Positions 13,253 to 13,552 of a stretch of DNA of 15,416 nt are shown piece after piece (within the stretch, counting starts at the first letter, position 1; the number at the start of each line of letters is the position of its first letter). A model generated the notes under the pieces. That model saw only the letters and a list, made by a program, of their open reading frames with translations, did not search any database and was not told where the DNA came from. Made by a program: the position numbers and the translations under genes. The stretch is from a virus (lineage: Duplodnaviria; Heunggongvirae; Uroviricota; Caudoviricetes): IMG/VR virus record IMGVR_UViG_2778261167_000001. The stretch is one strand, 5' to 3'.

Positions 13253-13365
13253 ACCCCCTCCACAATGTTTTAAACATGCATCTTGCGAACAACTTTAGAT
13301 AAACGGTGTTAGTGATGAACAAAAAACACGCAAAATCGACACCAGAAAAATAAAACACATTGAAT

Positions 13366-13378
13366 ATCAATTTGTTGC
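13366..13378 (+). promoter_or_regulatory. IHF consensus-like site inside the cosB-like region
   Basis: Plus strand TATCAATTTGTTG fits WATCAANNNNTTR. Lambda cosB has an IHF site between Nu1-binding elements. Confidence 0.35.
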
Positions 13379-13426
13379 AGTGGTGGTGATGGCGAATGAA
13401 ATTTCAAAAACTAGCCTTTTTCCGCG

Positions 13427-13438
13427 ACGCTCCCGCCC
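13427..13438 (-). other. Candidate cosN 12-nt cohesive-end sequence (minus strand GGGCGGGAGCGT)
   Basis: Aligns to lambda cosN GGGCGGCGACCT, with the flanking ACGGGGCGG and CGCGG conserved. Exact nick positions are inferred by analogy. Confidence 0.55.
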
Positions 13439-13552
13439 CGTGGCAAGGGTACCCCACCGGGAGGACCCGCAAAATGAGAGCGATTATCATTTGTACACAC
13501 TCTAACACCTGCATTATCGCAGCCCCTCGCTGAAGGGCTGCTGTAATGCATG

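Follow-up and report, generated by a model that had tools for sequence, protein, structure and literature searches.

Genetics of phage lambda has established cosQ as the signal for packaging termination. Lambda-like phages are defined by their 12-base cohesive ends (Feiss and co-workers; PMC4669245). Among these phages cosQ is highly conserved, as are the CG pairs that flank the nicks, and natural variation at bp 7 to 12 of the cohesive end is common, with changes at bp 9 and 12 in N15 and at bp 8, 9, and 11 in Gifsy-1 (PMC4669245). Changes in this right half have no measurable effect on cleavage, and the terminases of lambda and N15 are without specificity for cosN (PMC4669245). Closer to the locus described here are phages whose small terminase (TerS) belongs to the Pfam family DUF1441. 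For two of these, mEp213 and LLS, a published analogy with lambda gives GGGCGGCGCGCT as the inferred cohesive end (PMC12315714). In a cyanophage with a DUF1441-type TerS the 5' cohesive ends were determined experimentally, and these start with GGGC and have the same flanking bases (PMC9303873). The TerS of this cyanophage is 38% identical to that of the window, as the whole stretch of 15,416 nucleotides analyzed here is called.

The window presents the following genes, in the order in which the phage strand reads:

15411-13553, minus strand: holin fragment, GH108 endolysin, and small phage ORFs, first in gene order
13553-13915, minus strand: 120-amino-acid ORF, function unassigned (phrog_1935), last gene before cos
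between 13553 and 13252, minus-strand reading: 300-bp non-coding stretch with cos
12758..13252, minus strand: terS, 164-amino-acid small terminase (Pfam DUF1441; phrog_141, "terminase small subunit")
10656..12758, minus strand: terL, 700-amino-acid large terminase of the gpA family (Pfam GpA_ATPase, 1.7e-71; GpA_nuclease, 2.6e-85)
downstream of terL, minus strand: gpW-like adaptor, lambda-family portal, ClpP-protease/capsid fusion, and tape measure

This order is that of lambda, running from the lysis genes through cos, terS, and terL to the gpW-like adaptor and the portal. Since cos separates the lysis genes from those for packaging, head, and tail, the window is predicted to span the ends of the virion genome, as had been proposed in an earlier note on this DNA. 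The genes for TerS, the large terminase (TerL), the adaptor, the portal, the protease-capsid fusion, and the tape measure are intact, full-length ORFs with full-length family matches. Over 13 kb the window is approximately 92% identical to mEp460, Ayreon, phi458, and vB_EcoS-569R4, all of them plaque-forming lambdoid coliphages, and its best DNA matches, at about 94% identity, are in Escherichia coli and E. ruysiae. The site is read here as the cos of an mEp460/cdtI-like lambdoid prophage that most likely works as that of lambda does, a reading to which we assign a probability of roughly 85%. It is a functional-looking cos of an already known, ordinary type.

The alternative that survives best is that the prophage is cryptic or defective and no longer makes virions, so that this cos would be a once-functional relic, its sequence being conserved only by recent descent. 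Only 15.4 kb of the element are visible, IMG/VR contigs hold prophage debris with the same cos type and without terS, and in many E. coli genomes the site recurs, in as many as 7 copies, some of which are likely defective. However, the packaging and structural genes of the window are intact along the full length of their families, and all cos subsites are likewise intact and match those of plaque-forming phi458, mEp460, and Ayreon at approximately 92%, so that a relic appears unlikely. The window was also considered as a satellite (PICI) cos, and this was rejected, since the site is followed by full genes for terminase, head, and tail.

The 120-amino-acid ORF before cos differs from the genes at the same position in phi458 and cdtI, and the right end of the genome, immediately ahead of cosQ, is a slot for variable cargo. 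At 13511-13537 this ORF is followed by a GC-rich hairpin that lacks a T run; as an intrinsic terminator it was dropped, a scan of 13100-13700 having predicted neither promoter nor terminator on the phage strand. Their absence across cos fits late read-through transcription. On the other side of cos, the 750-amino-acid ORF at 6937-9189 (minus strand) joins a ClpP-type protease domain to a capsid protein domain. Fusion of prohead protease and coat has been reported for Gifsy-2-like heads, as a passage of PMC12315714 states in citing Effantin et al. 2010. The listed TTG start of this ORF overlaps the portal ORF by about 250 bp, and the true start is therefore probably further downstream.

The part of cos that lies to the left of terS on the phage strand begins with three elements:

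13469..13490, minus strand: conserved 22-bp block ATGATAATCGCTCTCATTTTGC, immediately upstream of cosQ and about 80% identical to lambda there
13462..13468, minus strand: cosQ heptamer GGGTCCT, starting 30 bp before the nick, as in lambda
13425..13440, minus strand: cosN, CG/GGGCGGGAGCGT/CG, with the 12-mer at 13438-13427 and the nicks (slashes) predicted by homology with lambda

Together, cosQ and cosN sit 186 bp upstream of the small terminase gene, and the minus strand reads ...ATGATAATCGCTCTCATTTTGC GGGTCCT CCCGGTGGGGTACCCTTGCCA CG/GGGCGGGAGCGT/CG CGGAAAAAGG... through them. The corresponding stretch of lambda (NC_001416) is ...GGGTCCT-N23-CG/GGGCGGCGACCT/CG..., and by direct count the distance from cosQ to the nick is 30 bp in both. 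In pairwise alignment, the 55 bp to the left of the nick (-55 to -1) are identical to lambda at 38 of 55 positions (z = 6.5 versus shuffles). The pattern GGGTCCT-N18-30-CGGGGCGGNNNNNNCG is found once in the 15.4-kb window and in none of 200 dinucleotide-preserving shuffles. This agrees with the lambda-like junction of cosQ (13468-13462) and CG-flanked 12-mer that the earlier note had recognized, and the interval that it gave, 13253-13500, brackets cos correctly. The lambda cohesive end that it gave, GGGCGGCGACCT, was borne out by comparison with NC_001416. Its count of about five differences was too high, as ungapped comparison gives four, at bp 7, 8, 9, and 11, all in the right half. The left half, GGGCGG, and the CG dinucleotides flanking both nick positions are those of lambda. 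Read directly, the two-fold rotational symmetry of the 16-bp cosN extends to 8 of 16 positions, compared with 10 of 16 in lambda, and is thus weaker but present. The ATGATAATCGCTCTCATTTTGC block is also found in cdtI, phi458, mEp043, and VT1-Sakai, and it is kept although homology to several relatives otherwise ends at cosQ.

A degenerate cos pattern retrieved at least 131 sites from IMG/VR. Among the matches listed, 64 have the 12-mer of lambda and 13 of 131 have GGGCGGGAGCGT, which is the second commonest; 12 of these 13 are followed by a DUF1441 terS approximately 185 bp downstream. The remaining 12-mers among the matches listed are GGGCGGCGCGCT (8 sites), the GGGCGGCAGCGT of Gifsy-1 (5 sites), and 23 further right-half variants. 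The variants sort largely by terminase lineage among these matches, and position 7, at the center of the dyad, is unlike that of both lambda and Gifsy-1. This could be taken to mean that the cosN variant is itself the determinant of specificity, such that the divergent TerL needs GGGCGGGAGCGT, lambda-type terminases cannot cut it, and cosN and TerL have co-evolved. Linkage alone would nevertheless give the sorting by lineage, and the window shares its left half, CG flanks, and cosQ with lambda despite a TerL identity of 24%. Moreover, a single type of cosB and TerS DNA-binding domain, that of the window, is found with three different right halves of the cohesive end, GGGCGGGAGCGT, GGGCGGCAGCGG, and GGGCGGGAGCAT, and the terminases of lambda and N15, as noted above, do not discriminate at cosN, and right-half changes have no measurable effect on cleavage. 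A determining role of cosN is thus very improbable. Because terminase tolerates changes in the right half and one cosB/TerS type accommodates three of them, the cosN variant probably has no bearing on packaging specificity, and the four changes with respect to lambda are probably neutral drift linked to the DUF1441 terminase lineage. It is hardly credible that GC-rich intergenic DNA has come to resemble cos by chance. Although a 596-Gb scan also retrieved the exact pattern from unrelated genomes of high GC content, Streptomyces and Parafrankia among them, the cosQ-cosN pattern appears once in the window and never in the 200 shuffles, and the site occupies the canonical place upstream of terS and terL and is kept in dozens of related phages.

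Between cosN and terS the following elements were assigned, in phage coordinates in which bp 1 is position 13438 of the window:

13394..13426, minus strand: cosN-proximal cosB CGCGGAAAAAGGCTAGTTTTTGAAATTTCATTC, bp 13-45, kept in all DUF1441-type cos, with invariant columns in a 12-sequence alignment
13380..13391, minus strand: R3-like putative TerS site CATCACCACCAC, bp 48-59, a direct repeat of R1 with conserved position
13365..13377, plus strand: IHF core consensus TATCAATTTGTTG, bp 62-74, an I1-like candidate bend site between R3 and R2
13337..13348, plus strand: R2-like putative site CGACACCAGAAA, bp 91-102, inverted (GTGTCG on the phage strand)
13306..13317, minus strand: R1-like putative site CATCACTAACAC, bp 122-133, with TGTTC to its left
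13253..13305, minus strand: 53-bp leader from R1 to the terS start, with a near-palindrome ATGCATGTTTAAAACAT (13281-13265) and a Shine-Dalgarno sequence GGAGGGGG

This cosB has the R3-I1-R2-R1 layout of lambda, with other R sequences and with a tighter R2-R1 pair. The earlier note had described the segment as one that cannot be aligned with the cosB of lambda. This stands for bp 46 to the terS ATG, which has no similarity to lambda (z = -2.8), and does not stand for bp 13-45, which has 22 of 33 identities (z = 3.8 versus shuffles). The R3 of lambda and of N15 is placed as in the window (PMC9026076).

The assignment of the R sites starts from a short motif and is argued from positional conservation. 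The R3 and R1 sequences, CATCACCACCAC and CATCACTAACAC, are direct repeats identical at 10 of 12 positions, no other direct repeat having been found in this region, and the R cores of the window are CATCAC and CGACAC. The motif TCRHCAY occurs four times in cosB, compared with 0.23 expected (P about 2e-4). It was sought in 14 cos sites, of which 13 have a TerS of 48 to 96% identity (mEp460 type, PhiR47_1, VT1-Sakai, Fels-1, Gifsy-2, Chris1, and mEp043 type) and the last, of the cdtI type, is more divergent. Twelve of these sites have the motif in the same three places and orientations, forward at about bp 45-53, reverse at about bp 96-101, and forward at about bp 119-127. One of the other two is a contig that lacks the R2 match only, and the cdtI type lacks the motif. 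The 12-sequence alignment, from which cdtI was left out, keeps the same R blocks while the sequence between them drifts; R2 appears as a (G/A)TGTCGA block, and TGTTC-N-CA at R1 is invariant in 12 divergent relatives. The IHF core WATCAANNNNTTR has a single match in the whole window, counting both strands, and this match falls between R3 and R2. At the same position TTGAT is kept in most of the aligned relatives, and the strict core is matched by only some. The leader is kept in the cos of mEp460 type, PhiR47 type, and contig L041b, and is absent from that of mEp043 type, where R1 overlaps the start codon.

A literature search for cosB together with Gifsy-2, Fels-1, mEp213, or VT1-Sakai gave no description of a cosB from the DUF1441 group; Vahanian et al. 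(2017, Virology 509:140), reportedly a dedicated survey, may cover it. What is mildly new here is limited to the R-site layout of the DUF1441-type cos and its apparent co-variation with the helix-turn-helix of TerS. When full texts were searched for the 12-mer and its complement, the sole match was an unrelated paper on a mammalian promoter.

TerL is 24% identical to lambda gpA (E = 8e-20), and both gpA domains, ATPase and endonuclease, are present. TerS has DUF1441 as its sole Pfam match and phrog_141, not phrog_57, as its best PHROG; it does not pass the model of the Nu1 family (Phage_Nu1). BLASTP of TerS against lambda Nu1 returned nothing, nor did a PDB sequence search with TerS. Comparison of the DUF1441 and Nu1 alignments with hhalign gave a probability of 74% (E = 2.7e-5) over 148 columns, in which the two helix-turn-helix regions are matched to each other, and the PHROG matches are reciprocal, from TerS of the window to phrog_57 (5e-12) and from lambda Nu1 to phrog_141 (5.6e-8). 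The AF2/AlphaFold model of TerS (pLDDT 79, pTM 0.38) presents a strand-helix-helix-wing-helix arrangement at residues 9-57 followed by long helices. Its predicted N-terminal winged helix-turn-helix has helices at 12-19 and 23-30, the latter of which contains HRQT. Among 350,000 PDB chains, Foldseek placed lambda TerS 1-98 (6hn7_B) first with a probability of 0.99 and a weak E value of 0.05, and MerR-family proteins next. Profiles and predicted fold thus indicate that TerS is a remote Nu1 homologue with a putative winged helix-turn-helix. The earlier note had called it a divergent Nu1-like subunit, a label that is fair because the protein is linked to Nu1 by profile and predicted fold yet fails the Nu1 family model.

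The identity between the window and cdtI is 88% at cosN, falls to 31-48% in cosB and at the 5' side of terS, and rises to as much as 100% in terL. One TerS from IMG/VR, L123, has the N terminus and cosB of the window type and the C terminus of the VT1 type. Proteins with NISQLA...HRQT are paired with R sites that end with CAC, those with NINQLA...HRQT with R sites that end with CAT, and those with ...CRQT with CAACAT or TAACAT. Taken together with the three right halves found with one cosB type, these observations imply that cosB and the DNA-binding domain of TerS travel together while the right half of cosN drifts independently. CosB and this domain are then paired much as in the lambda/21 paradigm. 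Since TerS is a DUF1441 protein and a remote homologue of Nu1, a packaging specificity unlike that of lambda is likely, and it would be common to the mEp460-like phages. R sites with the sequence of lambda, the mark of lambda packaging specificity, were not found in the window. The distinct specificity that the earlier note had suggested from a paired change in cosB and TerS is accordingly in keeping with the R-site sequences and the TerS profiles. A further proposal, for which we see about equal grounds for belief and for doubt, is that DUF1441 TerS and the compact R3-I1-R2-R1 cosB constitute an uncharacterized specificity set that belongs to none of the lambda, 21, and N15 classes. One-residue changes in the helix-turn-helix (NISQLA versus NINQLA, HRQT versus CRQT) would track single R-site bases (CAC versus CAT, CGACAT versus CAACAT), the window would represent the "CAC" specificity, and orphan cos sites that lack terS could be exploiting satellites.

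We infer the following course of events for a cos of this type. Dimers of the DUF1441 TerS would bind through their putative winged helix-turn-helix to R3 and R1, which are direct, and to R2, which is inverted, with C(A/G)(T/A)CAC as the core. Between R3 and R2, IHF would bend the DNA at its consensus site, and the bound complex of TerS and IHF would position the gpA-type TerL on cosN. TerL is expected to nick 12 bp apart beside the conserved CG, between 13439 and 13438 on the minus strand and between 13427 and 13426 on the plus strand, which would leave 5' ends of GGGCGGGAGCGT. This predicted placement coincides with base 1 of two independent GenBank records, those of cdtI and Tritos, whose starts may have been measured or may have been set by analogy with lambda. 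Packaging would then run toward terS, leftward in window coordinates, taking in terS, terL, and the head and tail genes, and would stop at the next cos, where cosQ would be required. Specificity would reside in the R sites of cosB and in the N-terminal domain of TerS, both unlike those of lambda, 21, and N15.

This type of cos is widespread in E. coli. The 76-bp segment from cosQ through cosN-proximal cosB is present in 2,045 of 5,426 complete E. coli genomes, and one genome can hold as many as seven copies. Among the GTDB species representatives (596-Gb scan) E. coli and E. ruysiae carry the exact variant with cosQ. The remaining GTDB matches are likely contaminant MAG contigs or probable chance matches in mostly high-GC genomes, of which those compared with the window did not match it, and the scan therefore says little about host range. 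Three IMG/VR contigs, L122 (cos at about 11170 and 13610 of the matched strand), L078 (at about 4097), and L041 (three cos in 12 kb), carry full cos of the window type or cdtI type, with cosQ, cosN, and R3-I1-R2-R1, and with terS absent or truncated downstream. They have an upstream AATCCGGCTTTTTTA(T/C)GGGTCCT junction in common and several cos within a few kilobases. These orphan cos may be satellites that exploit the DUF1441 terminase, or prophage debris. In addition, at least 12 IMG/VR sites among the matches listed have the exact GGGCGGCGACCT of lambda and no recognizable TerS within 900 bp downstream; these are candidates for PICI-type islands like those in PMC9026076.

Marking this cos gives the predicted ends of the virion genome and the predicted packaging direction for the prophage, and it identifies the DUF1441 protein as the small terminase. 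Its importance beyond annotation is little. The family as a whole offers a natural example in which the right half of cosN drifts and cosB is swapped together with the DNA-binding domain of TerS as a module. This could guide specificity-swap experiments and the design of cosmids or transducing particles for a very common group of E. coli prophages.

Compared with lambda, the cohesive end of the window differs at the four right-half positions given above, the R-site sequences are unrelated, and the R2-R1 spacing is tighter, at 24 bp from center to center. The TerS of the window falls in Pfam DUF1441 and that of lambda in Phage_Nu1, and the TerL proteins share the 24% identity already mentioned. 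Gifsy-1 of Salmonella has the cosN GGGCGGCAGCGT, a published right-half variant (PMC4669245) confirmed by a sequence check, so that bp 7 is the one position at which the 12-mer of the window departs from it. Gifsy-1 is nevertheless unlike the window in having a TerS of the phage 21/Nu1 type and a 21-like cosB. The cos of mEp213, mEp043, and LLS (GGGCGGCGCGCT) comes with a DUF1441 TerS, as in the window (56% identity), and has the same R3-I1-R2-R1 geometry. It differs in the other right half, in R sites that end with CAT and not CAC, in an R1 placed over the terS start, and in the absence of the 53-bp leader.

Several further relatives present departures at cosN. In ASU11 (ON416862.2), about 120 to 160 bp upstream of terS, cosQ leads straight to R3 and approximately 45 bp including cosN are missing, a gap that is probably an assembly artefact at the linear ends. 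In cos of the VT1-Sakai type, the spacing from GGGCGG to CGCGG is shorter by a single base. The CGCGG...GGC...TTTTT block and the R sites are retained in Gifsy-2 and Chris1, which lack the GGGCGG left half; the ends of these two may therefore differ in sequence or in length.

The cos of cdtI (AB285204/NC_009514) and of Tritos (OV696610) is identical to that of the window in the 12-mer GGGCGGGAGCGT, in cosQ, and in the first 22 bp or so of cosB. Both records, circular for cdtI and linear for Tritos, start at the first G of GGGCGGGAGCGT and end with ...CCACG. Their terL is related to that of the window, with long stretches of 95-100% DNA identity. In contrast, their cosB is unrelated from about bp 35, where it has repeats of TTTCACCTG in place of CATCAC/CGACAC, and the N-terminal domain of their TerS differs as well, with HRDTVKKR instead of HRQTAAAR and 42% identity overall. 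In mEp460, phi458, Ayreon, and vB_EcoS-569R4, cosQ, cosN, R3-I1-R2-R1, and the leader are as in the window at 90-92% DNA identity, the TerS is 96% identical, and the head-tail module is approximately 92% identical. These mEp460-like phages differ from the window by point changes only and by other sequence upstream of cosQ, at the right genome end.
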